Source of the DNA: Leucoraja ocellata | Lineage: Eukaryota | Length of the DNA stretch: 64,000 bases | Reading direction: 5' to 3' | Assembly: GCA_036785375.1 (NCBI GenBank) | Contig: JAWMAR010000688.1 | Location: 434,001-498,000 of the forward strand | Shown here: piece by piece, positions 1,605 to 64,000 of the stretch | Layout of the letters: the number at the start of each line of letters is the position of its first letter | Position numbering within the stretch: position 1 is the first letter of the stretch | Notes under the pieces: model-generated | Database searches by the model: none | Seen by the model: the letters and a program-made list of their open reading frames with translations, nothing else | Told to the model about the DNA's origin: nothing | Position numbers and translations under genes: made by a program

Positions 1605-2419
1605 GCTATACTAATCAAATCAAATGGAAGGAATTTTATGTGACTGAATCCTTGCAGACGGTGGATAGTCTTCAAGAAGTTAGGAGGCGAGGTGCTTGCT
1701 GCTTGATTCCTAGTTTCTGACCTGTTCTTTACATTGAACTAGAGTAGCCATTTCTGATCAATGGTAATCCACTAGGACATTGATACTAGGTAGATACGAA
1801 ATGCTGGAGTAACTCAGCGGGTCAGGCAGCATCTCTGGAGAGAAGGAATGGGCGACGTTTTGGGTTGAGACCCTTCTTCCAGCTCTTGTCCCAGGACATT
1901 GATACTGGTAGATTCGGGGATGGTAATGTCATAGGATGAAAGCCAGATTTTCTCATTGGATATCATTGTTGCCTACTAGTTATGTGATGCAAATGCCACA
2001 TCAGCCCAGGCCTGGATTTTGCCCAGGCCTTTATTCATTAGGAATGAGGGCTGCTTCATTATGTTGTTGCAATTGGTGCTGAACATTCCATTCCAACTGT
2101 TGATTTAGCGATTGAAGAAAGGCTATTGTTGAAGCAGCTGAAGGTGATTGAGCCTAGGATATCACCCTGAGGAACTCCTGTGACTGAGATGTTTGATCTC
2201 CAAACATCACAGACTTTGTGTATGTATAATTCCATCCAGCAGAGGGCCCCTCTGATTCCCATTAGTCTTGCAAAATGATTTCGATTTTGAAATGTTTTTA
2301 GAAAGTACTGCAGATGTTGGAAAAATCGAAGGTAGACAAAAATGCTGGAGAAACTCAGCGGATAAGGGGCGACGTTTCGGGCCTGAGACCTTTCTTCTGA
2401 CTGACAAATAATAGTTTTG

Positions 2420-3108
2420 TTACAATTGTATGGGAATGAACAAAGCCACACCTGGAATGTTGTGCAGAGTTTTAATCTCCTCATTTACAAAAGGTAAGAT
2501 TGGTATTGGAGGTGGTTGAAAAAAGGCTCATAAGACTGATTCCTGGGGGTGATAGGGTTGTATCGCAGAAAATAAATTTGTCTATATTTAGTTTGGAGTG
2601 AACAGTAATCTTATTGAAAGAGCTTTGGTACGGTGGCATGGTGAGATAGATAGATGTTAATGTTTTAACAGTGGGAAAATCTCAGAGGAAATGTATTCAC
2701 TGGAGTTTAGAAGGATGAGGGGAATCTTATAGAAACGTATAAAATTATAAAAGGACTGGACAAGCTAGATGCAGGAAAAATGTTCCCAATGTTGGGCGAG
2801 TCCAGAACCAGGGGCCAGTCTTAGAATAAAGGGCAGGCCATTTAAGACTGAGGTGAGAAAAAACGTTTTCACCCAGAGAGTTGTGAATTTGTGCAATTCC
2901 CTGCCACAGAGGGCAGTGGAGGCCAAATCACTGGATGGATTTAAGAGAGAGTTAGATAGAGCTCTAGGGGCTAGTGGAGTCGAGGGATATGGGGAGAAGG
3001 CAGGCACGGGTTTTTGATTGGAGACGATCAGCCATGATCGCAATGAATGGCGGTGCTGGCTTGAAGGGCCGAATGGCCTCCTTCTGCACCTATTTTCTAT
3101 GTTCCTAT
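2420..3108 (+). mobile_element. CR1-type LINE 3' fragments (old decayed part, then a younger copy at ~2696-3108)
   Basis: SLRIKGRPFKTEVRKNVFTQRVVNLCNSLPQRAVEAKSLDGFKRELD in ORF 2769-3017, followed by the typical 3' UTR and ttctatgt tail. Confidence 0.85.
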
Positions 3109-3699
3109 GAAATGGGTGTGCAGGAATTTCTTCCTGCAGTGGTTGGTAAGTCTCTGGAATCCCTCACTCTGGAGGATTGTGGAGGTCAGATTATTGGAGG
3201 CATTTATAGAAAGGGCTCCAGGCCGCGAGAACGGGCTTCTTCCTGGTGTGCAGGTACAGTCATTCACCCACGTTATTTTAAGAAGGAATTGCAAATGCTG
3301 GAACAATCGAAGGTAGACAAAAATGCTGGAGAAACTCAGCAGGTGAGGCAGCATCTCACCCGCTGAGTTTCTACAGCATTTTTGTCCACTCGCGTTATTT
3401 TGTAATTTGTACCCGTCATTTAGGGATGTTATATGAATTTAAAAAATAATAAGTTTATGTGTGTTTTCTCATCTTCAAGGTTAGTTCTTCTGTTTGCCTT
3501 TATTTGTTTCAGTTTTGCCTTTATTTGCTTCAGCCTTTCTAGAGAACATGCTACTTTTTGCTTTGCCCATTTTCAAAATATAACATTTTTGAATTTGGCG
3601 TTTGATTGGTACAAGGAGACTACAAAGCTCGTAATATCTATTTTTTTTACGCACTAACTTTCTACATTTCTACTTTTGGGTATGTAGGTGGCAATTATG

Positions 3700-4444
3700 G
3701 TTCATGGAATTTTCTCTCCCCCCTCCCCATTTCTCTCCCCTCTACTCTCTCTCCCCCTCCCCCATCTACCCCCCCTCCCTCCTCTCTTCCCCCCCCTCCC
3801 TCCTCTCTTCCCCCCCCCTCCCCTTCATCCCCTCTCTCTGCCCCCTCCTCTCTCTTTCCCCCTCCCTTCCCCCCTCCCCCTCTCCCACTTACTCCCCCCC
3901 CCCCCCCCCCCCCCCGTGTGTTGGGGGGGTGGTTAGTGTGTGTGTGACACTGCAGGCCGCTTCCCCCCTCACCCCCTCCCACAACGGGTCCCACTTGGTC
4001 TAGTAACTATTAAAACTCTAGTCGTGGATGTGTGTGGGTGTGTGAAAACCGACTCTGACAGTAAAAGTTTAAAATTCCTGTAGAGATTTATCCCGTGAAG
4101 TTAAGAATCCACTTATCTGAAAACATCATGCATTATGTCTCCAGTTATTAATCAAAATGTTCAAAAATTTCAAATAACTGTCTGGCTCTGGCTGATGATG
4201 TCACAATGGCTGCACGTTGTGTTCATGCGCTGCGAGTGACGTCGCTGCTCGCTTTTTGCCGTTCTCCCGCCCGGCTCCTCTCCCCTCTGCCCATGCCCTC
4301 CCCCTCTCATCCCTCCCCCTCTCATCCCCCCCCCCCCACCCCCCTGTGTGTGTGGGGGTGGTTAGTGTGTGTGTGACGCCACAGGCCGCCTCCCCGCAAC
4401 CGCGCTTTGATGGGACGGGACCCATCGGGTCCCACTTGGTCTAG
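3700..4444 (+). mobile_element. Two head-to-tail non-autonomous Helitron-like elements (3' ends at 4003 and 4444)
   Basis: Both end in gggtcccacttggtCTAG|T. The second has a hairpin GGGACCC-ATC-GGGTCCC (4417-4433) 7 nt before CTAG. Both have a C-rich tract followed by gggggtggttagtgtgtgtgtgac. The 5' boundary of the first copy is uncertain. Confidence 0.62.
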
Positions 4445-5346
4445 TATCTCATTTTGCTCCATTCAGCTTAAAGTTATTCTCTCTCATATTTAAGAATTCA
4501 CCCAGGGTAAAAGAACCGTCTGCCGTCTACCAAATCTGCGCCTCTCATAACTTTATATGGTTCTCTCAGGAGTATGTAGCTTGAGTAAATTCTATTAAAT
4601 CCCCTAATTAGGGTAATTAAAAGTTTCCTAAGCAAGACTTTGAAATTGCACAGAACCTTGAGAGATTTGAAGGGTAAAACAGAGAAGTCATTTTTTGACG
4701 CACCAATGCTTTTATTGTTGTTGACGACAAATGTATTGGGTATTGAAGGGATTGCGTCAAAAACAACCCTAGAATACAATGTTTTAACACCATTAGAACT
4801 GTAATATGCTTCGTTTTTTTTTTACTGTATTTACAATATTATATCATGCTGAAAGGTGGCACATAAGTTAATTTGCTGTCTGAGCAACTACAAACAAGTC
4901 TGTCTCTGATTCCATTTGTGGGAACATTTGTTAAAAGGCACCTTGGTGGGTGTTTGAGAAATGGGCATTGAGGGTTATTATACTTGTAAAAATGTATCAA
5001 GTGAATGCAATTGGACAGGCTGGATAGAAATGAGACCCGTCTGAAGCTGTTATGGAAATCATTATGCTGTCATCCTAACGTGATCCTTACTGGAAAAACA
5101 AATGCTTAGTCTTCTCTGGGTAGGCCAGACCCAATTATCTGGTCTTCTGCCACCCATCTAAGGCACTCCATTAAATGGGCAAAGCACAAAACGTGAAAGA
5201 GACCAGGTGGAATCATTGACTCTTTAAGAATCTATTGCCCTTGGGTAAGAATTTTTAAGGAAAATTTGTAGGACATTATTGGAACAGGGTGATGCAATTC
5301 ATGAAAGTAGGAACTTTGGGCTTTTTGTAACATTTTCTTGTGTTAA

Positions 5347-5586
<240 letters not shown>

Positions 5587-7649
5587 TGAAAGGCAGAGGA
5601 ACAGGAGCGAGCATTTGGCCCTTTGAACAATATTTGACAGTTCATCATATTCTGTTCAATATCCCTCTTTCCCTGAAAATCAGAACTGATCCCAGAATGG
5701 AGTAGAGAGAGGTTAAAGATGTCTATGAATACCACTGCCAGCTGATCTGCACAGATTCAAGGATGTGGCCAAGGATTCAATCTTTCTGAAGAGTCTAGTG
5801 TTTTATTGTCATACGTCCTGAAATAGATCAATTAATTTCTTATTTTCAGCAGCATAACAGATATAATTTTCTGGCACCCTCTGTTCCAGAGTCAATCTGG
5901 ATTATCTGTTTTTCTGGACCAATGGAGGTCACGTGATAATGAAATGACAAACACCCCGGGCTGCTAATAACACCCCTCCCATGTCTCTAAGCAGCATGGA
6001 GTGCGAGAAACAAATATAAAATGTAAACTCAATGTGGAAGGAATGACCTGCTGACCCATCGGCCCCCGCCGTCTCCTTAGCCATTTAGAGCCCCGGCTTC
6101 TGACCCAACTCCTGATTTGCAAAATGCATCAGCGAGCCCTTCTTCGCCCACCGCACATTCCGGTGACAAGGCTGTTGTTGTGACTCGTGTTGTAGCCCCT
6201 GGGGACAGTGCTTTCTTCGGGCCATACCTCCATCCCCTATCTGCCTCGCTTCACTGCCTCCTTCTCCCCCACCTCCTTCTCCCCCAGAGTCGCTGACAAA
6301 CTCCACCTTGGAAACGACAGCAGGTGAGAGGGGGGAGCCCCAAGGTGACCGAGCACGTCACAAGAAAGAGCTGGCCCTAGGGGCAACGATGTGAGTTGCA
6401 ACGACAGCCATGTGAACTGGTGAAGAAGGGCTCGCTGGTTTTCAAAGTATGGTACTACTATCAGTGTCACTTCTGATGGTAGTTCAGTAGATTCTACTCC
6501 AAGCTCATCAACCTGGTGAAACCCTTTCCTGCCTGAGGATTAATGAACAAGCAATGTATTTCTATTGTGAAACTTTTCTCAGAATTTTCAAATAGTATGG
6601 AAGAATTATTGTGACTAACAGATGATTGGGAGCAACTGATAAAAAGGGGCATTTGCTCTCATGCTGTTGCAGTGTCTTCAGATGGACTAGCATATGACAG
6701 TTTGTGAATAAATTGAGTGAAGGAGAGTGAAATAGTAACAGTATAATATGAAAAATGTGTTCTTGATGGAGACTGTAGAGATCAATGTTTAAAATATTTT
6801 TATCACCAAATTTCCTGGAGAAAATTAACATGGCCATTAGGTATTGAAAATGTAATTTGTTTATAAAAATCTGTTAAATTGAGATTTGCATTCAACTAGA
6901 TCAATGTATTGCAATAAATTCAATAAGCACATAAAGGGGAAAAGGATAACCAGAGAGAGTGGGACCCCTCTGAAATCAAAGGGGTCAACTCTGTGTGGAG
7001 CCACAGGCGATGGGCAAGGTCCTTAACGAGTATTTCTCCTCTTTTTACTGTGGAGAAAGACAGGAGGATAGGGGATCTTGATATGGGTTTCTGACCAAGC
7101 TGTTCTTGGAAACGTTGAAGGAAGAAAAAGCTTGAAATATTCAAATCATGCCACATGTAAGGGAAGTGAATGAGTTCAGGATAAAGGGGCTTAACAAATG
7201 TAGCCTCACCTATTTCCAGCATTTTTATTGGCACATCCAATATTTTAGAAAATACTGCAAAAGTATTTTCATGATTTCATTGCCAATGCCCTAAATGTCA
7301 CCCTAAAGTCTTTACTTGCATTATTACTTATAAATAACATGCTTGTCATCTGTCCCATTGATTCTGTCATTCCAGGGCAAAGGATCCTTGACTCTTGTGC
7401 CCAGGAGATGATTTTTGTGACCAGATTGTGCAAATTGTATTTATTAAAATATTGTATCCTATCCCCACCGCCAATTACCACTGCATTAATTTGCTCCCCT
7501 TTTGAATGAAGGCCCATTATACTCTTTATACGCATGACTGTAGCCAGCCACAGTTCCAACTCTCCCATCGCTGACGGCAACTCTGTTGGACGAATTATTG
7601 ATTTTGTTGAGTCTGAGTCTAGGAGGGAGGTTTTTGTCTGCTTGAATGG

Positions 7650-8410
7650 TGCCAGAAAAACAACCTCGCTCTCAACGTCAGTAAAACTAGGGAATTGATT
7701 GCTGACATTAGAAGAGGAAGGCCAAGGATCGACTAATTTGTCTTTATCAATCGGTGGTGAAGAGAGTCAACAACTTCAATTTCCTGGGTGTGTATATCTC
7801 TAAAGATCTGTCCTGGACACAGCGCATTGATGCAATCTTGAAAGCCCATTCGCACCTCTATTCCCAAGAAGATTGAGGAGATGTGGTATGTTTACGAATG
7901 GCCTCTTAACTTTGAAAAAAATTAGTAACTCAGCAGGTCAGACAACATCTATGGAGAAAAGGAATAGATGACATTTCGGGTTGAGACCCTTCTTGGCCTA
8001 TTTCTATCCAGAGAAGCTGTCTGACGCTGAGTTACTCCAGCTTTTTGTGTCTATCTTTGGTTTAAAACAGCATCTGCGGGTCCTTCCTGCACAACTCTCT
8101 TAACCTCTGCAGGTGTACAGTAGAGAGCATATTGACTGGTTGCTTCATGGCTGGTTTGGCAATACAAATGCCCTGGAACAAAGGAGATTACAATAAGTGG
8201 TGAACACTGCCCAGTCCATCACGGGTATTGACCTCTTCATCATTGAAGGGATCTAACAGAGGTGCTGTTTCAAAAAGGCAGCCAGCATCATCAAGAATCC
8301 ACACCAACCTAGTAACACTCGTTTTACTCCTGCCATTGGGAAGAAGGTATCAGAATCTGATAACTCGTGGTTCAGGAAAACCTTTTCCCAACAATGATCA
8401 GGTTATTGAA
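7650..8410 (+). mobile_element. Decayed Rex1/Babar- or L2-like LINE RT C-terminal fragment, interrupted by a Penelope-terminus insert (~7910-8095)
   Basis: Translates to NNLALNVSKTRELI..., VNNFNFLGV.IS.DLSWT, and RCTVESILTGC motifs, with frameshifts. Confidence 0.6.
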
Positions 8411-10251
8411 CACTAAGCTCTCCATGTAAAATATGAACAGCAACCAAACTACAAACTGGCTGGATTGCTCTTAGGACTTTCGGCTTTGTTTTTGAACTAT
8501 ATATTGGGTCTTTCTTTATTGAACTTTTTTGTTTGTGTTATCTCCTGAGTACTGTATTTACAAACCTATTGTGCTGCTGTTGTAAGAAAGAATTTCATTA
8601 TTCTGATTTAGAACATGATAATCAAACACACTTGACTCTTGACTAGTTAAAGCATAAATACAGAACTAAAGGCAAAAAAAGTTGAAAGATTTTGGGAAGA
8701 TATGGTTTGCGTGTTAAACTTTGCACTCTCAAGTCCCAATTTTCATTAGCCATGACAGATGTACGAATCGCATTTCTCAGTTCATTCTTAATTCCATTCA
8801 TTAAAGCTTACGATCTTCAAATTGTGCTTCTGTCTCGGTTCTAATAGAACCTGATTGCTGAGATTTTTCATATTTAATGCATGTTGTGCATCCCCAATAT
8901 TTTTTTCCTTTCTATTAATTGCATGCATTTTTCCAACTGTTAAGAGCTAGATGCAGATAAACTATTTCCCATGTGGTCTTGGACTTATCTTGCTGGAACA
9001 CTAATTTTTCTCTGTGTCCAGGTTTTTGTGGATGTACTTCCCCATTGACTGGGGATGTTCCAAACCAACTGTTGGATGACATCTTAAAACTGGGTGTAAA
9101 AGATCCTTTGATGCTACTTTGTTCAGAGGCCGACTATTAATTTGAACCCAGTAAAACCCAATGTCAACTTTTTTGGCAGTGGCTCAGTTTCAGTCTCGTG
9201 CAGAAAGTACAAAATGGAGAGAAGTAGGCAGTGAGAATGTGATTAGGTCAGGGTTGTGTCGAAGTTGGCTAAGCTGACTTGTAAAGCAAAGGAATTCATT
9301 TAGATGTTTAAGAAGGAACTGCAGATACTGGAAAATCGAAGGTACACACAAATGCTGGAGAAACTGAGAGGGTGCAGCAGCACCTATGCAGCGAAGGAGA
9401 TAGGCAACGTTTTGGGCCGAAACCCAATTCATTTAGATGATAGGCACAAAATGCTGGAGTAACTTTTTTTTTTTTGCCATGTCAGTGGGACAGGCAGCAT
9501 CTCTGGAGAGAAGGAATGGGTGACGTTTCGGGTCGAAACCCTTCAGTCTGAAGAACTGAACTTCTCTCCAAAGATGGTGCCTGTCCCGCTGAGTTACCCC
9601 AGCATTTTGTGTCTATCCAAAATTAAATTAGTGTTATGTGCCCGATCTCCGGGTTACAAACTAACTTTAACACCTTTCCATAGCTTTTGGAACCTGAAGT
9701 AGTGGAATGATAGCAGCTCTTCCTCTATCCTGAGGACTTCTGAAGCAATAGCTTGGAGGAGACAGACTTGCAAAAATCCCAAATTTAAAGCAGCAAATAA
9801 TCAGGAATGCTTTTTAATTGACTTTATTTGTTAGACACATCTTATAATATTTTTCTGAAAACTGTGTTAATTAGTCTGGGAAGAGTTTGTTGAGGTTTGA
9901 CATGTATGTTATTTCAAAGAAAATTTTGAAGTAAGCCATTTTTTTTTTGCCGTCATCTTATTAACTTACAAAGCACCCACAGGGGAAGGCTGTAAGAAAA
10001 TATATTTTTTAAGTGCAATAATTTGGAAAATGCACAGAACTTGAAAAGAAAGTGGCAATAATGTCCTGGCAGTTCACAAAAAAAAAATGACATTTTGGAT
10101 ATTTTAGCAAATGTGGAAAACATTTGCCCACACTGTAAATCAGGCCCTTTTACAGTTTCCTTTTCCAAAATGGCATATCTCTGAAGGAGGTAGACAAAAA
10201 ATGCTGGAGAAACAGCGGGTGAGGCAGCATGTATGGAGAGAAGGAATTGGC

Positions 10252-10279
10252 GACGTTTCGGGTCAAGACCCTTCTTCAG
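10252..10279 (-). ncRNA. Minimal (Penelope-type) hammerhead ribozyme core, intact consensus
   Basis: Reverse complement reads CTGAAGA-A-GGGTC-TT-GACCC-GAAAC-GTC: CUGANGA box, stem II, GAAA box and GUC cleavage triplet with the palindromic ACGU stem III. Confidence 0.6.
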
Positions 10280-11311
10280 ACTGAAACGTCGCCAATTCCT
10301 TCTCTCCATAGATTCCTGGGAGGTGTTTGAGGAATTAAATGTTGCTAAGGTAGTAGGGATCTGTTTGCAAAGGAATACAAGGATTATGAAACAGCAGTGG
10401 TACTTGTGGGGAAATGCTGAGACAGAAAAGATTAACAAGCATTTAGAAATGTTCCTATTGAAAAGGACCTGGTACTGATTTATTGAAGCCTGATAATTTT
10501 GACATCCTGAACTTTTTGGCATGGATCCAGCAGGATCCAACCTGCTGCCCTGACTTGCTGGACCTCCATTGGACTTTATTTTACAGAAGTGGTCATCTAG
10601 ATATACTTGCCCAACTCCCTATACTAACAGAATCAGTGAACACCACCTCATCAATTACAACAATGGTTGTGACTGTTCGGTCAGAGCTTGGAGGTTTGTT
10701 ACAGTGAGATGAGATAGTAATGGATTGCAAGAGGACACTAGCTTGTAGAATTTCAAACAAATGGCAAATGTAGTACAGATGTAGACTAAAATGCTAGAGA
10801 AACTCAGCAGTTGACGCAGCATCTATGAAGCAAAGGAATAGGTGACGTTTCGGGTCGAGACCCTTCTTCAAACAGGTCTCGATCTGACCCAGGTCTTGAC
10901 CCGATATATTTTCATCAAGAGAATGAGGTAAATGAGATTAAATGGATAAGTTGCAAAGGATGTGCAAGAACAGAGGAACCAGTTGGATTTGAGTTTTTGG
11001 AGTTTTCGGGTCGCATAAATGTGGTTTCTCAAGCCTTTGGGATCCTGGGCTTTAAGTAAAGTCAAAGGAATTATAATTACTTTTTAAATGTCATGAGGTT
11101 ATCAGAAGTCAGCTGTATCAAATTACCACGATCACTCGATTTTTACATCCAATTAAATGAAATGCTCAGATTTAGACATGAATTCATGCCCATTCATGTT
11201 TTTGAGAGAGGCATGAAAACATGATGGAAATTACATACATGGGTTACTCTGAAAATTATTCTTCAAGTAGCACAGAATTGAATTTACAGGCCAATTAACC
11301 TAAAAACCCAA

Positions 11312-11545
11312 AGAAAGACACAAAGCTGGAGTAACTCAGCAGGACGGGCAGCATTTCTGGAGAGAAGGAATGGGTGACTTTTTCGGTCGAGACCATTCTT
11401 AAGATTGGTCTCGATCCGACCCAAGTCTCAACCCGAAACGTCACCCATTCCTTCTCTCCAGAGATGCTGCCTGTCCTGCTGAGTTACTCAAGCTTTTTGT
11501 GTCCATCTTTGGTTTAAACCAGCATCTGCAGTTCCTTCCTACACA
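11312..11545. mobile_element. Inverted dimer of the Penelope-like terminal repeat (palindromic short insert)
   Basis: gctggagtaactcagcaggacgggcagcatttctggagagaaggaatgggtgac ... gtcacccattccttctctccagagatgctgcctgtcctgctgagttactc, flanked by the imperfect duplication aacctaaaaaccca / aacctacaaaccca. Confidence 0.7.
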
Positions 11546-12899
11546 ACCTACAAACCCATACTTCTTTGGAGCATATGAATAATATTCTGGGCTTTTTTGT
11601 ATTCAAAATGAAGATCCTATCAATGGTGGAGATCCCACAAAGGATCAGGTGTGAATTGTCAAAATACATTGCATACCAGACTTTGTGGGCCCAATTTGAA
11701 TCTACCTCTTGGAAAGGGTAAATGTGTAAGCTAGTGCCGATATTGGTAGCATTAAAATTATACCATTTGCAAAGTAGGTATAATTATGATTTTTGTTTGC
11801 CTTCCCCATCTCACCTGTTTCCCTTCAAAATAAATTGCATTGTTAATCTATAGGCTCAACATTTCTTTGGATGTCTGTCTGGAACTCATTGCCCATTTTA
11901 CACCTGTTAATCCCTTACATTTATCGCCTCCTGCTTGTTCAGCATCAACAAATTTATATTTAAATTCTCAAAGATATTTTTAAGAGCTTCTGTTGCTCTT
12001 CCTACTATAGTAATAAAAACAAAATTATGGCAAATGCTAGAAATCTGCAATTGAAAACACGTTGCAGATCACAGAGCATTTTATGTTTCATTTTCTTCTT
12101 TTGTGTGCATCTCCAATATACAATCTTTAAAAAAATAATTTTAAAGGATGCAGGTGTTTTTCCTAAGACCAGCAGTTGCCCTGGATGAGAGGGACTTGTT
12201 AGGCTATTTAAGAGGGCTGATAAGAATGGACCACATTGATAGCCTGGAATTGCATGTTGGCCAATGGATGATTCTCTGTCAGTACGGGAAGGAGATAATT
12301 TAGTCGCATGGTATCGAGAAAACAACCTCTCAGTCAGCAAGCAAAGGAACTAGTTATTGACTTTAGGACCTGAAGCATGTCCCCATCAGTATTAATAATG
12401 CAAAATGAAAAATGGTCGAGAGCATCAAGTTCTCCGGCATAAATAGCACCAAGTCTGTACTGGATAACCACATCAACCAAAAAAGCACAACACTGACTTC
12501 TTCAGGAGTCCAAATTCATTCACTGTGTTTCAGTGCATGTGACAATAATAAAACAATAACAACAATGACAAAGTGTCTCTGCATCTATTCCCTTCATGAT
12601 ATTATACATGTCTATAAAATCACCCCCTAAACCTCCTGCACTCCAAGGAACAAAGTGTTGTCTGGATGCTTTGAAGAGAGAGCTAGATAGAGCTCTTAAA
12701 GATAACAGAGTCAGGGGATATGGGGAGAAGGCAGGAACTGGGTACTGATTGTGGATGATCAGCCATGATCACAGTGTTAATCGAATGGCCTACTCCTGCG
12801 CATCTATAGTCTATTGCAGGGGTCTCCAAACGTTTCAGCATGAGGGACAGATATATTGAGCACATTTTTGCAGGCCGTAAGAAAAAAATAAAGAAATGT

Positions 12900-13511: not shown

Positions 13512-14600
13512 CATAGAAACATAGAAATTAGGTGCAGGAGTAGGCCATTCGGCCCTTTGAGCCTGCACCGCCACTCAATATGATCATGGCTGATCATCCA
13601 ACTCAGTATCTCGTACCTGCCTTCTCTCCATACCCTCTGATCCCCTTAGCCACAAGGGCCATATCTAACTCCCTCTTAAATATAGCCAATGAACTGGCCT
13701 CGACTACCCTCTGCGGCAGAGAGTTCCAGAGATTCACCACTCTGTGTGTGAAAAAAGTTCTTCTCATCTCGGTTTTAAAGGATTTCCCCCTTATCCTTAA
13801 GCTGTGACCCCTTGTCCAGGACTTCCCCAACATCGGGAGCAATCTTCCTGCATCTAGCCTGTCCAACCCCTTAAGAATTTTGTACGTTTCTATAAGATCC
13901 CCTCTCAATCTCCTAAATTCTAGAGAGTATAAACCAAGTCTATCCAGTCTTTCTTCATAAGACAGTCCTGACATCCCAGGAATCAGTCTGGTGAACCTTC
14001 TCTGCACTCCCTCTATGGCAATAATGTCCTTCCTCAGATTTGGAGACCAAAACTGTACGCAATACTCCAGGTGTGGTCTCACCAAGACCCTGTACAACTA
14101 CAGTAGAACCTCCCTGCTCCTATACTCAAATCCTTTTGCTATGAAAGCTAACATACCATTCGCTTTCTTCACTGCCTGCTGCACCTGCATGCCTACTTTC
14201 AATGACTGGTGTACCATGACACCCAGGTCTCGCTGCATCTCCCCTTTTCCTAGTCGGCCACCATTTAGATAATAGTCTGCTTTCCTGTTTTTGCCACCAA
14301 AATGGATAACCTCACATTTATCCACATTATATATATTTTTTTATTTTATTTTTTACATCCACATTATTGCATATCCACCGTCAACCCGTTTAGAATTAAT
14401 TGCCAGTCAATCTTGGCCAATTCACGTCTCATACCCACAAAGTTACCTTTCTTTAAGTTCAGAACCATTGTGTCTGAATTAACAATGTCACTCTCCATCC
14501 TAATGAAGAACTCAACCATATTATGGTCACTCTTGCCCAAGGGGGCACGTACAACAAGATTGCTAACTAACCCTTCCTCATTACTCAATACCCAGTCTAA
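13512..14600 (-). mobile_element. Young CR1-type LINE, 5'-truncated, with an internal deletion near 14330-14370
   Basis: ORFs 14098-14325 and 13603-14097 (split by one stop) give the ORF2 C-terminus (VLVRPHLEYCVQFWSP...). ORF 14364-14588 (PLGKSDHNMVEF) gives the end of the APE endonuclease domain. catagaaacatagaaa tail at the left end. Confidence 0.92.
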
Positions 14601-19913: not shown

Positions 19914-20126
<213 letters not shown>

Positions 20127-50045: not shown

Positions 50046-50315
<270 letters not shown>

Positions 50316-51900: not shown

Positions 51901-52244
51901 AGGTTGATCCATTATATGAAACGAGCTGCCGGAGGAGGTAGTTGAGACAAGTAACTTCTTGACCCAAATCGTCACCATTCCTTCTCTCCCGAAATGCTGC
52001 CTGTAACGCTGAGTTACTCCAGCATTTTGTGTCTATCTTCCGTTTAAACCAGCATCTGCAGTTCTTTCCCACACAGGTGCTTTCATAATGTTTAAGAAAC
52101 ATTTGGACAGGTACATGGATAGGATAGGTTTAGAGGATTATGCGGCAAGCGCTGACAGGTGGGACTAGTGCAGATGAGGCATTTTGGTTGGCGTGGGCAA
52201 GTTGGACCGAGAATGGTCTGTTTCTACACTATGACGCTTATAAC

Positions 52245-53040
52245 TATATAACCATTTACCAATTACAGCATGGAAACAGGCCATCTCGGCCCTTCTAGTC
52301 CGTGCCGAACACGTATTCTCACCTAGTCCCATCTATCTTCACTCAGCCATAACCCTGCATTCCTTTCCCGTCCTATACCTATCTAATTTATTTTTAAATG
52401 ATAAAATCAAACTGCCTCCACCACTTCCACTGGGAGCTCATTCCACACAACTACCACTCTGAATAAAGATGTTCCCCCTCATGTTACCCCTAAACCTCTG
52501 TCCCTTAATTCTCAAATCATGTCCTCTTGTTTGAATCTTCCCTACTCTCAATGGAAAAAGCTTATCCACGTCAACTCATCATTTTAAAGACCTCTATCGT
52601 CCCCCCCTTAACCTTCTGTGCTCCAAAGAATAAAGACCTAACTTGTTCAACCTTTCTCTGTATCTTAGTTGCTGAAACCCAGGCAACATTCTAGTAAATC
52701 TCCTCTGTACTCTCTCAATTTTGTTGACATCTTTCATATAATTTGGCGACCAAAACTGTACACCATACTCCAGAATTGGCCTCACCAATGCCTTGTACAA
52801 TTTTAATATTACATCCCAACTTCTATACTCAATGCTCTGATTTATAAAGGCCAGCGCACCAAAAGCTTTCTTTACCACCCCTTCTACATGAGATTCAACT
52901 TCAGGGACTATGCACAGTTATTCCTAGATCCCTCTGTTCAACTGCATTCCTCAATTCACTACCATTTACATGTACGTCCTATTTTGATTTGTCCTGACAG
53001 GATGTAGCTCCTCACCCTTATCAGCATCAAACACTTATGC
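52245..53040 (-). mobile_element. CR1-type LINE 3' fragment (same subfamily as 427-1280); duplicate at ~61295-62085
   Basis: ORF 52594-52878 VVKKAFGALAFINQSIEYRSWDVILKLYKALVRPILEYGVQFWSP. Confidence 0.88.
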
Positions 53041-54644
53041 ACTATTATTTTCCATCCTTCACGTGGGAAGTTTCTTGACCTTAAAAAAGACTGCCAAGCG
53101 ATACTGCTTACTGAGAATATCTGGGATGAAAGTATTAATGTAAGGGTAGTTTCCTGCATAATTTAAAGATGTTTTTCTATTTTTCCAAAATTCCTATTTT
53201 TGAAGCTTTTTGAAAGATAAAAATATTCACTATTTGGATCTGGGGCATTGGGGTTAGTTCTTTTTTTTTTTCTCCTGTTATCCTCAAATGAAAAGTACAG
53301 TTATAACTGTATTTATCTTTTTTTACTCTGAAATATTCTTGTGCAATGTCAGCCTATATCCTATCATGAACTTCAGATTTCTCCCTGCCCTGTTAACCTT
53401 GTGTTGTATCAAGTATTCTACTCATCTTTTTAAGATATTTTTTATGTGTTTGTTTACTATCCCATTTGTCAAGTAACCAATAATTCCATCTTTTCTCTTT
53501 CACTTTTATCTTCCATCACCCTCCCTTTCACCTCTCACCAACCGCAAGCTCTGGTTCCCTGGAATAAACTTTGGGAACATTAGGTTGAAGTGCTTTGCTT
53601 GAAAATGGCGAGTTTTCACAGGTTTAAAAAGAAAGGCCAGAAGTGCAGGCATCAATAATAAATTAAGGCGAGACAAGCCCTTGAGCAGAGAGCTGTAAAC
53701 CATCAGTTCAAGCTGATACAATGGGCACCTATTGTCTTTTCCCTTGTATATTGTTTGAAATAGCTAAGGTTGTTAAGCAGTTTTGTAATTGCACCACAGA
53801 TGGCCAACCTATTGTGGTGACAACATATTTATTCAAATGACTATAGCTCCGAGGAGTCTGAGAAAATAGGCAGAAAGGTCTTTTGTTTTAACCAGGTCTG
53901 GTAGCCAATCCTTATCAAGACACTTCTTCACCACTAACTAGAATTTGCTTTCACTGTTACTCTATACTTTTGGTTGTTGATGAAATGCAATGAGTTTTAT
54001 TAGCTTCCTTCACCATGTTCCTCAGCTTGTTTTCAGGACAAAATGGAGAAGCAGCTCTTCTGTAAACGACTATATGTTTATGAAGATCGACTAATTGGGG
54101 TGCATTATTATTTTCAGAAGATGGAATAGTGTGATAAGGTAGAAGATCAGCTGAATCTTACTGAAAGTCAGGTTGGGCTCATAAGCTGAAGGTCCTATTC
54201 CTGTTTCTTGAATTCCTATCGTAGTTAGATATTAGGCCAGGTGCTCCTCTAAATGCACAACTGCTGTACCTGAAAAATATGTCTACCCACAGATGTAAAA
54301 GAACAGCATTTTGGGGATTAATGTAAAGTTTTCCACATTGATAGGAAAATCAGAAAGGCAATCTATTATTTAAGTGATGAGAAATTGGGAAATGTTGATG
54401 TTTAAAATGGATCTGGGTGTCCTTGTGCACTCATCACTGAAAACAAATATCTATGTGCAACAAATAGTTAACACAAATAGAATGTTGGTCTTCATTAGAG
54501 TCATTAGTCTTACAGCAAGGAAACAGGCCCTTCAGCCCAACTTGCCTATGCCAACCAAGATAACCCCATAATATGCTAGTCCCACCTGCCTGCGGTTGGC
54601 CCATATCCCTCTAAACCCTTCCTATCCATGTTTCTGTCCAATGT

Positions 54645-54672
54645 CTGAAGAAGGGTTTCGGCCCGAAACGTT
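54645..54672 (+). ncRNA. Minimal hammerhead ribozyme core, sense to FAM117B pre-mRNA; duplicate at 63625-63652
   Basis: CTGAAGA-A-GGGTT-TC-GGCCC-GAAAC-GTT: both catalytic boxes intact, stem II with G-U pairs, GUU triplet, palindromic AACGUU. Confidence 0.55.
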
Positions 54673-55178
54673 GCCTATTTCCTTCGCTCCATTGATGCTG
54701 CTGCACCCGCTGAGTTTCTCCAGCACTTTTGTCTACCTTCAATGTTTTTAAATGTTGTTATAGTACCTGCTCAACTACCTCCTCTGGCAGCTCGTTCCAT
54801 ATACCCGTCACCCTCTGTGTGGAAAAAGTTGCCCGGTTCCTATGAAATCTTTCCCCTCTCACCTTAAAGAATGAGAAATATGCTTGTTTAGGAGATCTGG
54901 AATGTGCAATCAAATCTCAGGATACAGGATAAGAACTTTAGATTGAGATGAGTATTTTCACTTGGAGAAGTGAACCTTTGAAATTTGCTATCAATGCAAG
55001 TGGTAAACTTTCAGCATATAAGTAAGAAGGTGATTTACCAGCTGCAAGAGGTCCCAAGGGCTTTGGGGAGAATGCGAGAATATTGTATTTTGGATAGATT
55101 GTCAAGGATTGAATGGCCTGCTTGTGTGTCTTTTTGGATAAATTGTTTTGGTTTTCTGTCAACAATAGCCTTGCATAA

Positions 55179-55331
<153 letters not shown>

Positions 55332-55459
55332 TAAAGTATCTTTCCACATGTACTGTCTAAACTAATTAGAACACATCGTACAAAGAACAGAACACAGGGC
55401 GGTCCGGTGGAACAGCGGTATAAGTCTGCTGTACAGCCCAACCCAACCTGGCCTGCCAA

Positions 55460-55659: not shown

Positions 55660-57500
55660 CTCCCATTACGGGAAACATCCTTTCTACATCCACTATATCT
55701 AGGCTTTCATTATCTCACTGAGTTTAGTGGAATGGAGGCCAAGGCAGTGGATATTTTTAAAACAGAGATTGATAGATTCTTGATTAGTAAGGACGTAAAA
55801 GGGTATGGGGAGAAGACAGGAGAATGGGTTGAGAGGGAAAAATAGATCACACATCGAATAATGGAGCAGACTCAATGTGCCGAATGGCCTAATTCCGCTC
55901 CTGTCATAAGGCCTTTCATCTGTTACAACCAAACTATAGGGCAACAACATCAGCATTTCATTGCTATGACGGTGACAGCAAAGGGTAGAAATTTGTGCCG
56001 TTTTCCAGTGATGTATCAGTAATGCATCTGAGCATATCATGCAACAAAAGCCCCTTTTCGTACTGATTCCATGCATGCTTATTCCTAGGAACACATGCTG
56101 TGTACTAAGTGAGATGCTGACAGTGTACAAGGGAGTTGAGAGGTGTTGAGAGAGACTGATGTTGAGACCAAGTTGGATTAACCATGATCTTATTGAATGG
56201 CAGAGCAGACTCAAGAGGCCATCAGCGACCGGCAGGTCGTCTTAAGGTTTTTATATGCGAAATTGCAAGTGAATGATTTCAGTTCATTTGGTAAACTTCT
56301 GACAATTGGTTCAACACAAATTTGTGGTTGTACAGTTTTGTATAATAATTTAGGTAATGGTTCATTCATTCTTTGGAGTCGAAGAATTAAATCCACTGTT
56401 TTTAAAGATTGGTCGTTTTTGCTGGAAGGTGCATTCAAAATGAACATTGAATCTTGTTACATGTTGGTGACCTTCATTTTTGGCAATCATTTGGAATTTA
56501 TATTCATTTTAAGCATGAGGATTTTAAGGATGAACATTGATCCTGTACATCTTACCTTCTGGACCAGCCTATCATGGGGATCTTTATGAAATGCCTTACT
56601 AAATCTATGTAGACAATAAGTACCACCCCACTGTCATCGATCACCTTTGTCACCTCTTCAAAAAAAAACTTGATCAGGTTAGTAAGACATGATTTGTCAC
56701 GTACACAGCCATGCTCACTGCCTAATTAACAAATTCACTTCCAAATGGAAGTAAATCCTATCTTCAAGAATTCTCTCCATTAACTTCGCTACCATAGTGT
56801 GAGGCTCATTAGCCTATAATTCCCTGGAGATTCTCTACTTCCTGTTTTTAAACAAAGGAACAACATTGACTAGACTGCAGTCCTCTGAGACCTCGCCTGT
56901 GGCTAGAGAAGACACAAAGACCTTCGCAAAAGTTCCTGCTATTTCCTCTCTTCCTCTTTCAGTAACCTTGCATTAGTTCCCTTCAGGCACTATCTCTAAC
57001 TTCAAACCATCCTTGTATCCCCTATTTCCATCCCTCAAGCACCCTAGTCATCGTACCAGTTTCACTGTCCTGCTGAGTTTCATTGTTTAGATCACTCGTT
57101 ATCACCTTCCCCAACAATGGGCCACTGTAGGCTTCACCTTTCCTTGATCATCATTGCTTTTTGCATATCTTTCATATATTTGTTCTATGTACCTTTTCTT
57201 ATCTCTTCCCCTCCATGACTCTCAGTCTGAAGAAGGATCTCGACCTGAACATCACCTCGTCCTTTTCTCCAGAGATGCTGCCTGACCCGCTGAGTTACTC
57301 CAGCCTTTTATGTCTATCTTCCATGTAAACCAGCATCTGCTGTTCTTTCCTGCACAAATGTCTGCTCCCAATTTACTCTCCCTTGTTCCTGTGTAATAAC
57401 TTTGTCGAGGTCCAAAGATTTGGCAATTGGGGGGGGGGGGGGGGGGCAGCCTACAGTACAATCCCAGTGGAGTGATTACACCTTTATTATTTTGAATTGA

Positions 57501-57818
<318 letters not shown>

Positions 57819-58786
57819 TGAATATAATCAAGACATAAGTACAACAGGTAGTGCAAAGAAAAAATACCTGAGTGAAGAATATAGTGTTACAGCTTTTAGC
57901 TTTAAAGTTCCAGAGAAATTGCAAATAAAACAAAAGTGCAAGGTCTGCAAGAAGGTAGGTTAGGAGATGGGAGCTACATCCTAGCTTATGGGATGAATGG
58001 GGTCAAGGAAAGAGCGTTTGTCGCGGCCCTGTTTCCACCAATCTTTTCACCACCACGCACAAGAAGCGCAAAACAGACACCATTGTATGCAGATGCCGAG
58101 ACGTGTGTTCAGCCCTGGCTGAACAATTTCTAAACTTGTGATGTGGACTCGATAAGAAAAAGATGGATGAATGGTCTAATAACAGCGAGGAAGAAGCTGT
58201 TCCTAAATCAGGTGGCACATGTTTTCAAGCTTTTGCATCTGCCGGATAGGAGAGTGGAGAAGAGGAAATGACGGATTAAATTGCCCTTGAATATGTTGGC
58301 TGCTTTCCCAAGGCAGCATGGAGTATAGATTGAGACACTGGGGAAGGGGGAACTGTTTGGTATATTAGACTGCGCTGCATCCATATTCTCTCTGCAATTT
58401 CTTGTATTGAATAAGTTGAATAAGTTTATTGGTCAAGTATTCACATACAAGGAATTGCCTTGGTGCTCTACCCGCAAGTGACACATGACATAAAGTGACA
58501 GTTAGGAATGACACAAAAAACATTAAACATTAATAATAAAACATTATTGATTAAACAAGTGAATTAAATAAAATACTAGAGCAAAAGGAGGCTACACATT
58601 TTTGGTTATTGAGTAGAGCTTGTGGTCTTAACCGAGCTTGCCAAACCAAGTTGTGAAGCATCCGATAGGATGCTTTCTATGTGCTGGTGAAGGAGATTTA
58701 TTGAGATTGAATCAATATCCCATTGGACAAAGATTCCATTTTCTCATTGCTGTCCTTCATGCTATATTCAAAGAAGGCTGGTACTA

Positions 58787-60420
58787 CAGGCGCACAACCT
58801 TTTATCCGAAGTTCCAAATAACGAAAAGCTCCGAATAGCGACATTTTTTCGGTCCTTGAAAAAAGGTCCTTGAAGACGTTCACCGAGGGCGGCCCGCAGA
58901 GGTGACAGCGGAACCTCCGGTCGGTCCTCGAAGAAAGGGGAACTAAATCCCCATTCATAAAAGACAAGGTGAGGGTATATTGCGCGGGAGGGTTAATAAT
59001 TGACAATCTGCTGCTGCCTGCCCGCTGAGTTAAAAAGTTCCCAACGTAGACTCACGATACACAGTGTATCGTGAGTCTTGCGTGGGAACTTTTTAACTCA
59101 GCAGGCAGGTAGCAGCAGATTGTCGCTCCCTTCATTTCTCACCCCACCTACACCCCTCTGCTTCCCGGCCATGTGTGTGACTCCTTCCCTCCCCCGCCCA
59201 TTGCACCGGCGCGGGGTTTTGCACTGTCTTCACGTCGGAGCCAGTGCCAGTCACCAGAGACGTCAGGACCAACGGGACACCGGCCCCCAGGCCCACTGCA
59301 AGCACGGAGATCCCAGAGACCCACAGCCAGCAGCAGCCCAGCCCCGCTCCAACTACAGAGGAACACGCTCCCCGTATGACCGAAGCTGATGGTGTGCAAG
59401 CTACGTCTTGTCTTGGGTTGCAGATGAGGGGCGCAGCTCGGGCTGTGACGTCTCGGGCCACCCCCCTGTACAGGAGCTGAGACTGGGAACTGTGGGGTTG
59501 TTTGCAGTTGCAGAGGGAGGGAGCAAGGGCGGTACAGTTCCCAGTCTCAGCTCCATTCCAGGGAGGTGACCGGAGACGTCAGGACCAACGGGACACCGAC
59601 TGCAAGCACGGAGATCCCAGAGACTCACAGCCAGCAACAACTAGCCCAGCCCCGCTCCAACTCCCAGAGGAACCCGGGTTGCGGATGAAGGGGCGCAGCT
59701 CGGGCTGTTGGCGAAGTGCCACTTGTCGCTGTAGCGGCGCATCGGGGAGCGGGTTCTTGTTGGTCCTGACATCTCCGGCCATCCCCCTGGACAGGAGCTG
59801 AGAGACATCAGGACCCACCAGAAGCCGCTCCCCGATGGGCCGCTACAGCGACAAGTGGCAGTTCGCCCACAGCCCGAGCTGCGCCCCCTCATCGGGACAC
59901 CGACCCCCAGGCCCACTGCAAGCACGGAGATCCCAGAGACTCACAGCCAGCAACAACTCTAGCCAGCCCCGCTCAAACTCCAGAGGAACCCGGGTTGCGG
60001 ATGAGGGGGCGCAGCACGGGCTGTGGGCGAACTGCCACTTGTCGCCGTAGGGCAGCGGATTCCTCTGGAGTTGGAGGGACAGGGAGACAGCGGCTTTTGA
60101 GAATGGTGGGCAATCACTTCCAAAGTTCTGCCCACACAGTCAGTACACCTCTCCTACACTTGTCTTCCGCACTAAGACCATCTCGCAGAGAATGATCCCA
60201 GCCTAACCCATTCTCTCCTATTCTGCAAGAAAAAACTACATTGAAGATTCAAACTCGCGATTGAGTAACAGCCGGGATCGAGGCGCAAACTCGCGACCTT
60301 GCGGCTATGAGCCGAGCACTCTACCACTACACTAAAAATCTTTCATTCCGAAAGCCGAAAAATTCTGAATTACGAAAAGTGTCTGGTCCCAAGGCTTTCG
60401 GATAAAAGGTTGTGCACCTG
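58787..60420. mobile_element. Foldback MITE C (1634 bp), same termini as MITEs A and B but a different interior; absent from copy 1
   Basis: gtacTA-CAGGCGCACAACCTTTTATCCGAA...TTCGGATAAAAGGTTGTGCACCTG-TAtgggaaagg. The empty site gtacTAttgggaaagg is at 51311-51326. Confidence 0.93.
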
Positions 60421-63400
60421 TATGGGAAAGGTTTGTTTGTACAGCTATAATAGTTAGCATCACAGATATGACAGTGGTCGAGAAGGTTTCGGCACATTGG
60501 CCATCATCAGTCAGAGTATTGAGTGTAGAAAGACACAAAAAGCTGGAGTAATTCAGTGGGCAGGCAGCATCTCTGGTGAGAAGGAATGGGACAATGGTTA
60601 GGGATAAAGGAAACAAGAGCCATAGACAGTGATATGGAGAGATAAAGAACAATGAATGAAAGATATGCAAAAAAGTAATGATGATAAAGGAAACACGCTG
60701 TTTGTAGGGTGAAAATGAGAAGCTAGTGCAACTTGGGTGGGGGAGGGATAGAGAGAGAGGGAATGCCGGGATTACCTGGTGAGAGAAATCAATATTCATA
60801 CTACTGGGCTGTAGCTGCCCAAGTGAAATATGAGATGCTGTTCCTCCAATTTGCGTTTAGCCTCACTCTGACAATGGAGGAGACTCGAGGACAGAAAGGT
60901 GTGTGTAGGAATGGGAATGAGAATTACAGTGTCCAGCAACCAGGAGATCAGGTTGATCCATTATATGAAACGAGCTGCCAGAGGAGGTAGTTGAGACAAG
61001 TGCCTTCTTGACCCGAAACGTCACCCATTCCTTCTCTCCCGAAATGCTGCCTGTAACGCTGAGTTACTCCAGCATTTTGTGTCTATCTTCGGTTTAAACC
61101 AGCATCTGCAGTTTTTTCCCACACAGGTGCTTTCATAATGTTTAAGAAACATTTGGACAGGTACATGGATAGATAGGTTTAGAGGATTATGCGGCAAGCG
61201 CTGACAGGTGGGACTAGTGCAGATGAGGCATTTTGGTTGGCATGGGCAAGTTGGACCGAGAATGGTCTGTTTCTACACTATGACTCTTATAACCATATAA
61301 CCATTTACCAATTACAGCATGGAAACAGGCCATCTCAGCCCTTCTAGTCCGTGCTGAACACTATTCTCACCTAGCCCCATCTACCTGCACTCAGACCATA
61401 ACCCTCCATTCTTTTCCCGTCCATATACCTATCTAATTTATTTTTAAATGATAAAATCAAACCTGCCTCCACCACTTCAACTGGGAGCTCATTCCACACA
61501 GCTACCACTCTGAATAAAGATGTTCCCCTCATGTTACCCCTAAACCTCTGTCCCTTAATTCTCAAATCATGTCCTCTTGTTTGAATCTTCCCTACTCTCA
61601 ATGGAAAAAGCTTATCCACGTCAACTCATCATTTTAAAGACCTCTATCGTCCCCCCCCTAACCTTCTGTGCTCCAAAGAATAAAGACCTAACTTGTTCAA
61701 CCTTTCTCTGTATCTTAGTTGCTGAAACCCAGGCAACATTCTAGTAAATCTCCTCTGTACTCTCTCAATTTTGTTGACATCTTTCATATAATTTGGCGAC
61801 CAAAACTGTACACCATTCTCCAGAATTGGCCTCACCAATGCCTTGTACAATTTTAACATTACATCCCAACTTCTATACTCAATGCTCTGATTATAAAGGC
61901 CAGCACACCAAAAGCTTTCTTTACCACCCTATCTACATGAGATTCCAACTTCAGGGAACTATGCACAGTTATTCCTAGATCCCCTCTGTTCAACTGCATT
62001 CCGCAATTCACTACCATTTACCATGTATGTCCTATTTTGATTTGTTCTGCCAGGATGTAGCACCTCACACTTATCAGCATTAAACACTTATGCACTATTA
62101 TTTTCCATCCTTCACGTGGGAAGTTTCTTGACCCTTAAAAAGACTGCCAAGCGATACTGCTTACTGAGAATATCTGGGATGAAATGTATTAATGTAAGGG
62201 TAATTTCCTGCATAATTTAAAGATGTTTTTCTATTTTTCCACAATTCCTATTTTTGAAGATAAAAATATTCACTATTTGGATCTGGGGCATGGGTTAGTT
62301 CTTTTTTTTTTCTCCTGTTATCCTCAAATGAAAAGTACAGTTATAACTGTATTTTATCTTTTTTTTACTCTGAAATATTCTTGTGCAATGTCAGCCTATA
62401 TCCTATCATGAACTTCAGATTTTTTAAGATATTTTTCATGCGTTTGTTTACTATCCCATTTGTCAAGTAACAATAATTCCATCTTTTCTCTTTCACTTTT
62501 ACCCTCCCTCACCCTCCCTTTCACCTCTCACCAACCGCAAGCTCTGGTTCCCTGGAATAAACTTTGGGATCATTAGGTTGAAGTGCTTTGCTTGAAAATG
62601 GCGAGTTATCACAGGTTTAAAAAGAAAGGCAGAAGTGCAGGCATCAATATAAATTAGGCGAGACAAGCCCTTGAGCAGAGAGCTGTAAACCATCAGTTCA
62701 AGCTGATACAATGGGCACCTATTGTCTTTTCCCTTGTATATTGTTTGAAATAGCTAAGGTTGTTTAAGCAGTTTGTAATTGCACCACAGATGGCCAACCT
62801 ATTGTGGTGACAACATATTTATTCAAATGACTAACTCCGAGGAGTTCCTGAGAAATAGGCAGAAAGGTCTTCTGTTTAACAGGTCTAGTAGCCAATCCTT
62901 ATCAAGACACTCTTCACCAGTAACTAGAATTTGCTTTGACTGTTACTCTATACTTTTGGTTGTTGATGAAATGCAATGAGTTTTATTAGCTTCCTTCACC
63001 ATGTTCCTCAGCTTGTTTCAGGACAAAATGGAGAAGCAGCTCTTCTGTAAACGACTATATGTTTATGAAGATCGACTAATTGGGGGTGCATTATTATTTT
63101 TCAGAAGATGGAATAGTGTGATAAGGTAGAAGATCAGCTGAATCTTACTGAAAGTCAGGTTGGGCTCATAAGCTGAAGGTCCTATTCCTGTTTCTTGATT
63201 CCTATCGTAGTTAGATATTAGGCCAGGTGCTCCTCTAAATGCACAACTGCTGTACCTGAAAAATATGTCTACCACAGATGTAAAAGAACAGCATTTTGGG
63301 GATTAATGTAAAGTTTTCCACATTGATAGGAAAATCAGAAAGGCAATCTATTATTTAAGTGATGAGAAATTGAGAAATGTTGATGTTACAATGGATCTGG

Positions 63401-64000
63401 GTGTCCTTGTGCACTCATCACTGAAAACAAATATCTATGTGCAGCAAATAGTTAACACAAATAGAATGTTGGTCTTCATTAGAGTCATAGTCATACAGCA
63501 AGGAAATAGGCCCTTCAGCCCAACTTGCCTATGCCAACCAAGATACCCCATATATGCTAGTCCCACCTGCCTGCGGTTGGCCATATCCCTCTAAACCTTT
63601 CCTATCCATGTTCCTGTCCAATGTCTGAAGAAGGGTTTCGGCCCGAAACGTTGCCTATTTCCTTCGCTCCATAGATGCTGCTGCACCCGCTGAGTTTCTC
63701 CAGCACTTTTGTCTACCTTCAATGTTTTTTAAATGTTGTTATAGTACCTGCCTCAACTACCTCCTCTGGCAGCTCGTTCCATATACCCGTCACCCTCTGT
63801 GTGGAAAAAGTTGCCCGGTTCCTATGAAATCTTTCCCCTCTCACCTTAAAGAATGAGAAATATGCTTGTTTAGGAGATCTGGAATGTGCAGTCAAATCTC
63901 AGGATACAGGATAAGAACTTTAGGATTGAGATGAGTATTTTCACTTGGAGAAGTGAACCTTTGAAATTTTGCTATCAATGCAAGTGATAAACTTTCAGCA

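Follow-up and report, generated by a model that had tools for sequence, protein, structure and literature searches.

The repeat and its copies in the window

The window analysed here, 64,000 nucleotides of Leucoraja ocellata DNA (assembly GCA_036785375.1, contig JAWMAR010000688.1, positions 434,001 to 498,000, forward strand), is spanned by a gene of the FAM117 family with exons at 5347-5586 and 50046-50315 on the plus strand (Pfam E 1e-15 and 3e-4). It is strewn with copies of a short repeat carrying versions of a hammerhead ribozyme motif which, to judge from its sequence, is the terminal repeat (pseudo-long terminal repeat, pLTR) of a Neptune-type Penelope-like element (PLE). A profile built from 24 long termini called 20 loci at 15 bits or more, plus two weak ones, and, over reversed sequence totalling 985 kb, matched nothing. 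Of the 20, four (57222, 60526, 61006 and 63620) sit in a duplicated block, and the window holds about 18 independent insertions in 55 kb, with 9293 and 9436 counted apart and the fragment at 51698 included.

An earlier note, made from the letters of this DNA alone, had placed the repeat at 16 positions. All 16 hold it; the note overlooked that 8 of the roughly 18 independent loci are head-to-head inverted pairs. The three target-site duplications (TSDs) that it listed are exact 14-mers, at 1774/1893, 9293/9426 and 36970/37170. The repeat had also been described as joined to GIY-YIG remnants and as split into GUC and GUU subfamilies, and we find the same: 38690-39100 corresponds to residues 1011-1163 of the parent protein described below and 51738-51875 to residues 1184-1229 (E 2e-12), and both subfamilies exist. 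A further 14-bp TSD lies at 51698/51739, and the same 14-mer is single at 60789 in the duplicated block (empty site); this filled and empty pair therefore shows directly that the inserts duplicate their target. The copies are given below with the source of each call in brackets; short and long denote the two alternative 3' ends of the repeat.

1774-1906, minus: solo short-end insert (1788-1880) with a 14-bp TSD, core decayed (profile, TSD)
2296-2405, minus: long-end copy with an internal deletion, TSD not found (profile)
3271-3401, unstranded: head-to-head pair of a long and a short arm, hammerhead lost, 9-bp exact TSD (profile, TSD)
7903-8104, unstranded: head-to-head pair, candidate 8-bp exact TSD (profile, TSD)
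9293-9439, minus: solo insert, GUU family, with a long end and its start within stem II; 14-bp TSD (profile, TSD)
9436-9618, unstranded: head-to-head pair of two short-end arms, TSD not found (profile)
10186-10324, unstranded: head-to-head pair with an intact minimal hammerhead at 10252-10279 in the minus arm (profile, descriptor)
10779-10879, minus: solo short-end copy (profile)
11297-11558, unstranded: head-to-head pair of a short and a long arm, 14-bp TSD with one mismatch (profile, TSD)
29052-29358, plus: pair whose plus arm passes the tail into the 5' untranslated region (UTR), to about codon 37 of the open reading frame (ORF) (parent comparison)
30803-31025, unstranded: head-to-head pair of a long and a short arm, 15-bp TSD with one mismatch (profile, TSD)
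33957-34002, plus: weak fragment of 13.8 bits, uncertain (profile)
36970-37183, unstranded: head-to-head pair of a long and a short arm, 14-bp TSD (profile, TSD)
38080-39100, minus: old element 3' end with decayed zinc-finger linker and GIY-YIG, 3' UTR, decayed hammerhead and long end (profile, parent comparison)
49739-49890, plus: long-end copy with 3' UTR upstream (profile)
51424-51875, minus: element 3' end with GIY-YIG C-terminus, hammerhead internally deleted (parent comparison)
51698-51752, plus: 27-nt terminal fragment (51712-51738) between 14-bp TSDs, within the GIY-YIG remnant; empty site at 60789-60802 (TSD)
51957-52076, plus: solo long-end copy starting in stem II (profile)
54640-54745, plus: solo GUU-family insert with a short end, beginning 2 nt ahead of the core; minimal hammerhead intact at 54645-54672 (profile, descriptor)
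57222-57357, plus: duplicate of 49739 in the duplicated block (profile)
60526-60885, minus: duplicate of 51424-51875, lacking the 51698 insert (parent comparison)
61006-61126, plus: duplicate of 51957 (profile)
63620-63725, plus: duplicate of 54640, intact minimal hammerhead at 63625-63652 (profile, descriptor)

The density stated in the earlier note is about right for the window (one locus per 3 kb) and is not particular to this gene: 80 arbitrary 10-kb stretches, 799 kb in total, gave 312 loci, or one per 2.6 kb, so the window is average in this respect. Extrapolated to the whole genome, this amounts to about 1.3 million loci. In exact counts over the 3.44-Gb genome, one 28-mer of the repeat occurred 21,383 times and a 48-mer of the other subfamily 19,542 times, with controls at 0.

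The parent element

Twenty loci were picked for long reverse transcriptase (RT) frames. They carry RT and GIY-YIG frames, mostly with a hammerhead about 100 nt beyond the stop codon, and both the GUU and the GUC version end ORFs of the autonomous type. The intact PLE ORF ending in the same repeat, which the earlier note had proposed to look for, was found at locus L260 (L260-L261, G000:C1:8663500-8677500). It encodes 1,234 aa with RT and GIY-YIG; the matches to RVT_1 (E 1.4e-6) and GIY-YIG (E 0.013) each lie just below the Pfam cut-off, and Pfam barely detects the GIY-YIG pieces of this element. A CxxxxCxxC motif stands in the linker that connects RT to endonuclease (EN), ahead of the GIY-YIG motif, and the N-terminal region is long and proline-rich.

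The L260-L261 array, very young and of about 2.5 units, consists of 1,807 nt, two units of 3,985 nt and a final 95 nt, the units being 99.9-100% alike. There is a hammerhead at each junction, 117 nt past the stop codon, and the ATG follows 164 nt after C3. Since the repeat in this tandem is followed by a tail of 35 nt, the 5' UTR and then the ATG, we read the short repeat as the pLTR. The length of more than one unit fits a circular or jumped template. No RNA record was among the matches listed for the parent stretch, which has no bearing on its expression. Fifteen of 25 loci with the N-terminus of the ORF reach the 5' hammerhead; 13 of these extend upstream as partial tandems (several being mutual duplicates) and two start there. 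Partial tandems forming pLTRs are present in L132-L154.

The assignment to Neptune is inferred from the CxxxxCxxC linker together with Neptune and Poseidon being the vertebrate groups; in the available part of PMC8557442, CX2-5CxxC in the RT-EN linker marks Neptune and Nematis. The short copies are colinear with the terminus of this parent, which bears out the Penelope origin, and the 'extremely truncated PLEs', of the earlier note.

The hammerhead motif

A strict descriptor of the minimal type I hammerhead was applied to the window and to the 799 kb of arbitrary stretches, with resampled sequence as control. The parent motif and 30 copies in the 799 kb matched it; the control gave 0. The motif has CUGANGA, an extra nucleotide before G10.1, a G10.1-C11.1 pair, GAAA, a loopless palindromic ACGU stem III and NUH, in agreement with the minimal hammerhead with palindromic stem III proposed in the earlier note. 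That note saw a version of the motif in most copies; in the window the strict descriptor is passed by only three, at 10279 (minus), 54645 and the duplicate 63625. The motif is strictly intact in about 10% of loci, and some 130,000 strict motifs are estimated genome-wide. Stem II, previously drawn with 5 bp and a 2-nt loop, is better drawn with 4 bp and a CUCG or UUCG loop, and has a U-A pair in one family and a U-G pair in the other. In stem I, pairs 1 and 2 form in 27 and 26 of the 30 motifs, pairs 3 and 4 in 3 and 8, and pairs 5-7 in 15-18, that is, two reliable pairs, a mismatch gap and a weak outer part, against the 4-5 bp that the class calls for. The minimum-energy structure predicted for monomers of 52-62 nt or for dimers is not the hammerhead fold. 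Dimeric PLE hammerheads were reportedly described in a 2017 paper.

The expectation that the core would be better conserved than its flanks was not borne out: over 238 arms, mean conservation was 0.93 in the core and median conservation 0.92 in the tail. In the same arms the CpG at G12 has decayed to 0.76. Because conservation of the core does not exceed that of the tail, and this CpG has decayed, we read the inserted copies as neutral; the hammerhead would, if anything, serve the parent. In an Rfam search of the window, no hammerhead model matched even at E 5, and the matches obtained were weak, sub-gathering microRNA-hairpin ones arising from inverted pairs and simple repeats. Cleavage after an upstream AUC can probably be dismissed on pairing grounds. 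A CTGATGA motif at 51408 and 60510 was set aside as part of a different repeat. Older hammerhead-like termini of the CTGATGA type, with a different stem II, occur at L116:4325 and L106:7168 and possibly belong to other PLE families.

Ends, pairs and target-site duplications

For the anatomy of the copies we used 421 loci from the window, 8 neighbouring stretches, 12 repeat-dense ones and the 80 arbitrary ones. They comprise 250 solo copies, 88 head-to-head pairs, 62 copies joined to 3' UTR, 16 multi-arm loci, 4 direct repeats and 1 tail-to-tail pair. The 3' ends are bimodal and about 35 nt apart; measured from C3, those of the young family lie 91-97 or 130-133 nt downstream, and they often share AC-rich microhomology with the target. 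Among the 60 head-to-head pairs with both ends classifiable (28 of the 88 were left unclassifiable), 52 were long+short, 7 short+short and 1 long+long, as against 30, 18 and 12 expected (p 6e-9). All ten pairs that had arms spaced 126-3,301 bp apart and a TSD of at least 9 were long+short, their TSDs measuring 14-18. Both arms belonged to one family in 51 of the 51 pairs in which both could be typed, where 16 mixed pairs were expected; 37 pairs were not fully typed.

A TSD, counted as present at a score of at least 10, flanks 28 of the 88 pairs and 32 of the 250 solos, compared with 0.4% of shuffled flanks. These duplications are real and mostly of 12-16 bp, and the earlier claim of independent insertions is supported. 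At L252 (about 955-1000), the inverted arm is the 35-nt tail alone and abuts the short arm's 5' end, the arrangement predicted should one RT halt where the other started. A miniature inverted-repeat or fold-back DNA transposon was ruled out by the unequal arms, by TSDs of 10-20 bp and by single-arm and ORF-bearing copies having the same ends as the pairs.

The 5' boundary of the copies

The 6 nt 5' of the cleavage site (three positions degenerate) are retained by 79,183 of 87,372 copies (90.6%). These copies span the scissile bond, so the 5' ends show no boundary at the site of cleavage. On its 3' side, the adjacent 6 nt are retained by 87,372 of 116,997 copies, and 8 of 250 solos start at model positions 39-44. 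When exact counts were extended toward the 5' end, a 42-mer occurred 24,894 times, with the first six core nucleotides 19,542 times, and with three or six more 13,573 or 9,832 times, which means a loss of 21% of the copies across the first 6 nt of the core and of 50% across the 6 nt before it.

About half of the young copies begin 2-6 nt ahead of the hammerhead core. In a sample of 92 young copies from contig C1, picked partly for a missing upstream 6-mer so that the ratio is not random, 47 end within 30 nt, of which 21 share precisely 2 upstream nt with the parent. Upstream homology is absent from 118 of the 172 single arms that reach C3 in an unbiased set of loci, and the base bias fades by -6. 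What precedes short copies are short fillers copied from the flank or from the element. The tract upstream resembles a 3' splice site; a spliced upstream exon was rejected, as short copies share no upstream sequence. Loose ends at the same two positions were seen in two contig sets of another organism and in one RNA run.

Six hits in this unbiased set run past the tail into the 5' UTR, one of them at 29052-29358 in the window; since its plus arm continues into the 5' UTR and the ORF, this copy comes from the 5' repeat of the element. At L237:1000-1330, a single TSD-flanked insert combines two pieces that both begin 1-2 nt ahead of the core, the first extending for 232 nt into the ORF's beginning. 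Because both pieces start at the core edge, we read this insert as two run-offs in a row. In three oligo-dT or single-cell cDNA runs of a related organism, the repeat appeared mostly as read-through on both strands, which neither shows nor excludes cleavage or a promoter. Read joints 'going back 32-34' were considered as tandem hammerheads; no such tandem was found at the loci examined, the joints arise where another family aligns, and we treat them as alignment artefacts, although this is not proven.

Other features of the window

The duplicated block, 48183-55016 against 55660-64000, is direct, about 7 kb long and 94-96% identical, with a gap of 200 N between the copies, and includes a FAM117 exon. 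It is either a segmental duplication or the product of assembling two haplotypes one after the other, and its copies differ by two transposon insertions. At about 58787-60422 lies a GC-rich insertion of 1.6 kb with terminal inverted repeats of about 25 bp and an apparent TA duplication, absent from the other block copy; it looks like a non-autonomous element of the Tc1/mariner type with internal repeats. Fragments of a Tc1-type transposase are found at 21351-21769 on the plus strand (HTH_Tnp_Tc3_2, E 3e-15), and 13514-14331 and 27173-27990 form a direct repeat of 818 bp, 98% alike and 13.7 kb apart. A lone fragment of a PLE RT region, with no terminus nearby, lies at 23128-23289 on the minus strand.

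Comparison with known systems

The papers compared here were available in part, and what follows refers to those parts. The kind of element and its inverted partners with a tail on one arm are already known, and the family is ordinary in kind: head-to-head PLE partners of which one arm carries a tail have been described, as have palindromic junctions and TSDs (PMC3846280, PMC8557442). With the EN+ PLEs of the Neptune clade in these two papers the element shares the single RT+GIY-YIG ORF, the CX2-5CxxC linker, pLTR-forming partial tandems, an inverted 5'-truncated partner, a one-end tail of 30-40 bp, palindromic inverted junctions and TSDs. It differs in the size of the TSDs (12-16 bp here, 8-10 bp in Adineta) and in numbering some 1.3 million loci, mostly just the terminal 95-135 nt.

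Dispersed minimal hammerheads from truncated PLEs are likewise known (Cervera and de la Pena 2014, PMC4209133). Those of metazoan PLEs in that paper have the same core boxes, the extra nucleotide between 9 and 10.1, the G10.1-C11.1 pair and the loopless palindromic stem III, and are mostly single dispersed motifs with nearby opposite-strand pairs. Stem II has 7-8 bp there and 4 bp here, and our stem I, of 2 bp with a weak outer part as in D. virilis, differs too; the estimate of 130,000 strict motifs compares with 4,000-9,000 in coelacanth and Xenopus.

The Poseidon protein of Anolis (PAc) in vitro cuts and extends both strands, with two adjacent internal start sites that define the tail; it requires RNA downstream of the start sites and uses uncleaved RNA (Frangieh et al. 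2024, PMC11167929). Two adjacent AC-rich start sites bounding the tail, the use of both strands and of uncleaved RNA would be alike in our element, where they are deduced from the copies. Anolis Poseidon belongs to another clade, and its ATG lies within stem II, compared with 164 nt after the hammerhead here. Neither the long+short rule nor a 5' stop at the edge of the hammerhead appears in the available text of PMC11167929, and in the open-access literature we found no statement of this stop or of a counted long+short rule. Nor did that literature yield anything on point for this family in cartilaginous fish, PLE twin priming, or strong-stop or solo pLTR products.

Discussion

We consider it probable that the short copies of this Neptune-type terminal repeat are dead-on-arrival cDNAs, made by the RT/GIY-YIG protein of the parent from the 5' repeat of an uncleaved RNA. 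The fixed start and the long and short paired ends are likely to record the element's mode of copying. The RNA would begin at about (A)GUCUGA, an initiator-like site, and the enzyme would make a staggered double cut. Each 3'-OH may then prime at one of the two sites on the 5' repeat, probably of one RNA, and the RT would run off the RNA 5' end after about 95 or 135 nt. Microhomology, often at an AG(A/T)CT palindrome, would serve to join the cDNA ends to the target or to one another; longer copies would call for templates that are read-through, circular or jumped. Together with the findings on Anolis Poseidon (PMC11167929) and the internal TATA-less promoter of Penelope (PMC2377424), priming of both strands on the 5' repeat followed by run-off where the RNA would end, 2-3 nt ahead of the core, is the simplest reading.

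Several observations weigh against this account. Most solos have no detectable TSD (among young solos, 21 of 76 have one), and the similarity of arms within pairs could stem from conversion after insertion. About half of the young copies continue past the 5' stop, as do 13 of the 15 N-terminal copies, several of which are mutual duplicates. The boundary is smeared, as C(-4) and T(-5) are still enriched (62 and 52 of 118), and a start at G(-2) is not the textbook initiator position. No excess of a cap-like extra G was seen at the 5' junction, and the three RNA runs contained no pile-up of read starts or ends.

The main rival keeps the same element and the same priming and holds that the 5' boundary arises where RT stalls or switches template within the 3' repeat, and not from the RNA end, whether because of the hammerhead fold, a protein bound there, the palindrome TCAG-N-CTGA or a C-rich tract immediately upstream. 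The position of the boundary, on the outer pair of the 2-bp stem I and on a palindrome, would suit it, as would the young copies that go past this point and the lack of an RNA start in the three RNA runs. We nevertheless regard a stall as unlikely, since TSD-bearing single-arm inserts halt at the same base with no partner arm, some copies reach the start of the ORF and so stem from the 5' repeat, and L237 resembles two consecutive run-offs.

The fixed 5' and 3' ends and the 1.3 million loci also recall a non-autonomous family like a short interspersed element (SINE), in which short copies with an internal promoter would be transcribed and recopied in trans. Minor variants are indeed commoner among short copies ('other', 17 versus 3), and non-autonomous derivatives of PLEs are known (PMC8557442, in its available part). 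However, the two commonest variants occur in long and short copies alike (16/13 and 17/9), 179 long-end arms share no 3' flank except duplicates and common target repeats, and the stretch downstream of the priming sites on which the Anolis protein depended is absent from short copies, all of which makes such a family improbable.

The earlier suggestion of non-autonomous, ribozyme-processed RNAs, retrozyme-like short or circular molecules reinserted by the PLE enzyme, starts from a real minimal hammerhead (30 strict matches in 799 kb, none after resampling) and from animal non-LTR retrozymes, which in the available part of Li et al. 2026 (10.64898/2026.07.22.740005) are likewise pLTR-derived, of type I hammerhead and without ORF; we hold it to be very improbable, given that the copies span the scissile bond and the cleavage site is no boundary, no permuted or short tandem units were found, about 90% of loci fail the descriptor, the core is kept no better than the tail, pairs would fold as long hairpins, both subfamilies end autonomous-type ORFs, and the two commonest variants are common to short and long copies. 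Retrozymes are head-to-tail arrays with at least two intact hammerheads, whereas the copies here are solo or head-to-head and uncut; direct two-arm repeats make up 4 of 421 loci, and no adjacent hammerhead tandem was found in any locus examined.

Returning to the run-off of cDNAs from the 5' repeat, we tentatively propose a fuller scheme, which we rate as possible though somewhat short of an even chance. PLEs would replicate through a terminally redundant RNA starting at the first paired base of the hammerhead. On a single such RNA, a dimeric RT-endonuclease would prime the two strands of a cut staggered by 14 bp, using a pair of fixed sites close to the 5' end. The resulting strong-stop-like cDNAs would be inserted unchanged, or else lengthened through strand transfer or on a circle made by the ribozyme.

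What is new here is the scale, a very young intact Neptune-type element, and three countable rules that constrain the mechanism: two priming sites; for each double insertion, a long arm and a short arm that belong to the same family; and a 5' stop that falls at the hammerhead edge, the cleavage site showing none. Work on the replication cycle of PLEs and the role of their hammerheads counts only one full-length PLE protein assayed in vitro (PMC11167929, in its available part). In a genome of this kind, most of the approximately 130,000 hammerheads that look intact are passengers. If the fuller scheme is true, the genome would hold about a million snapshots of that replication intermediate, together with a young intact element.

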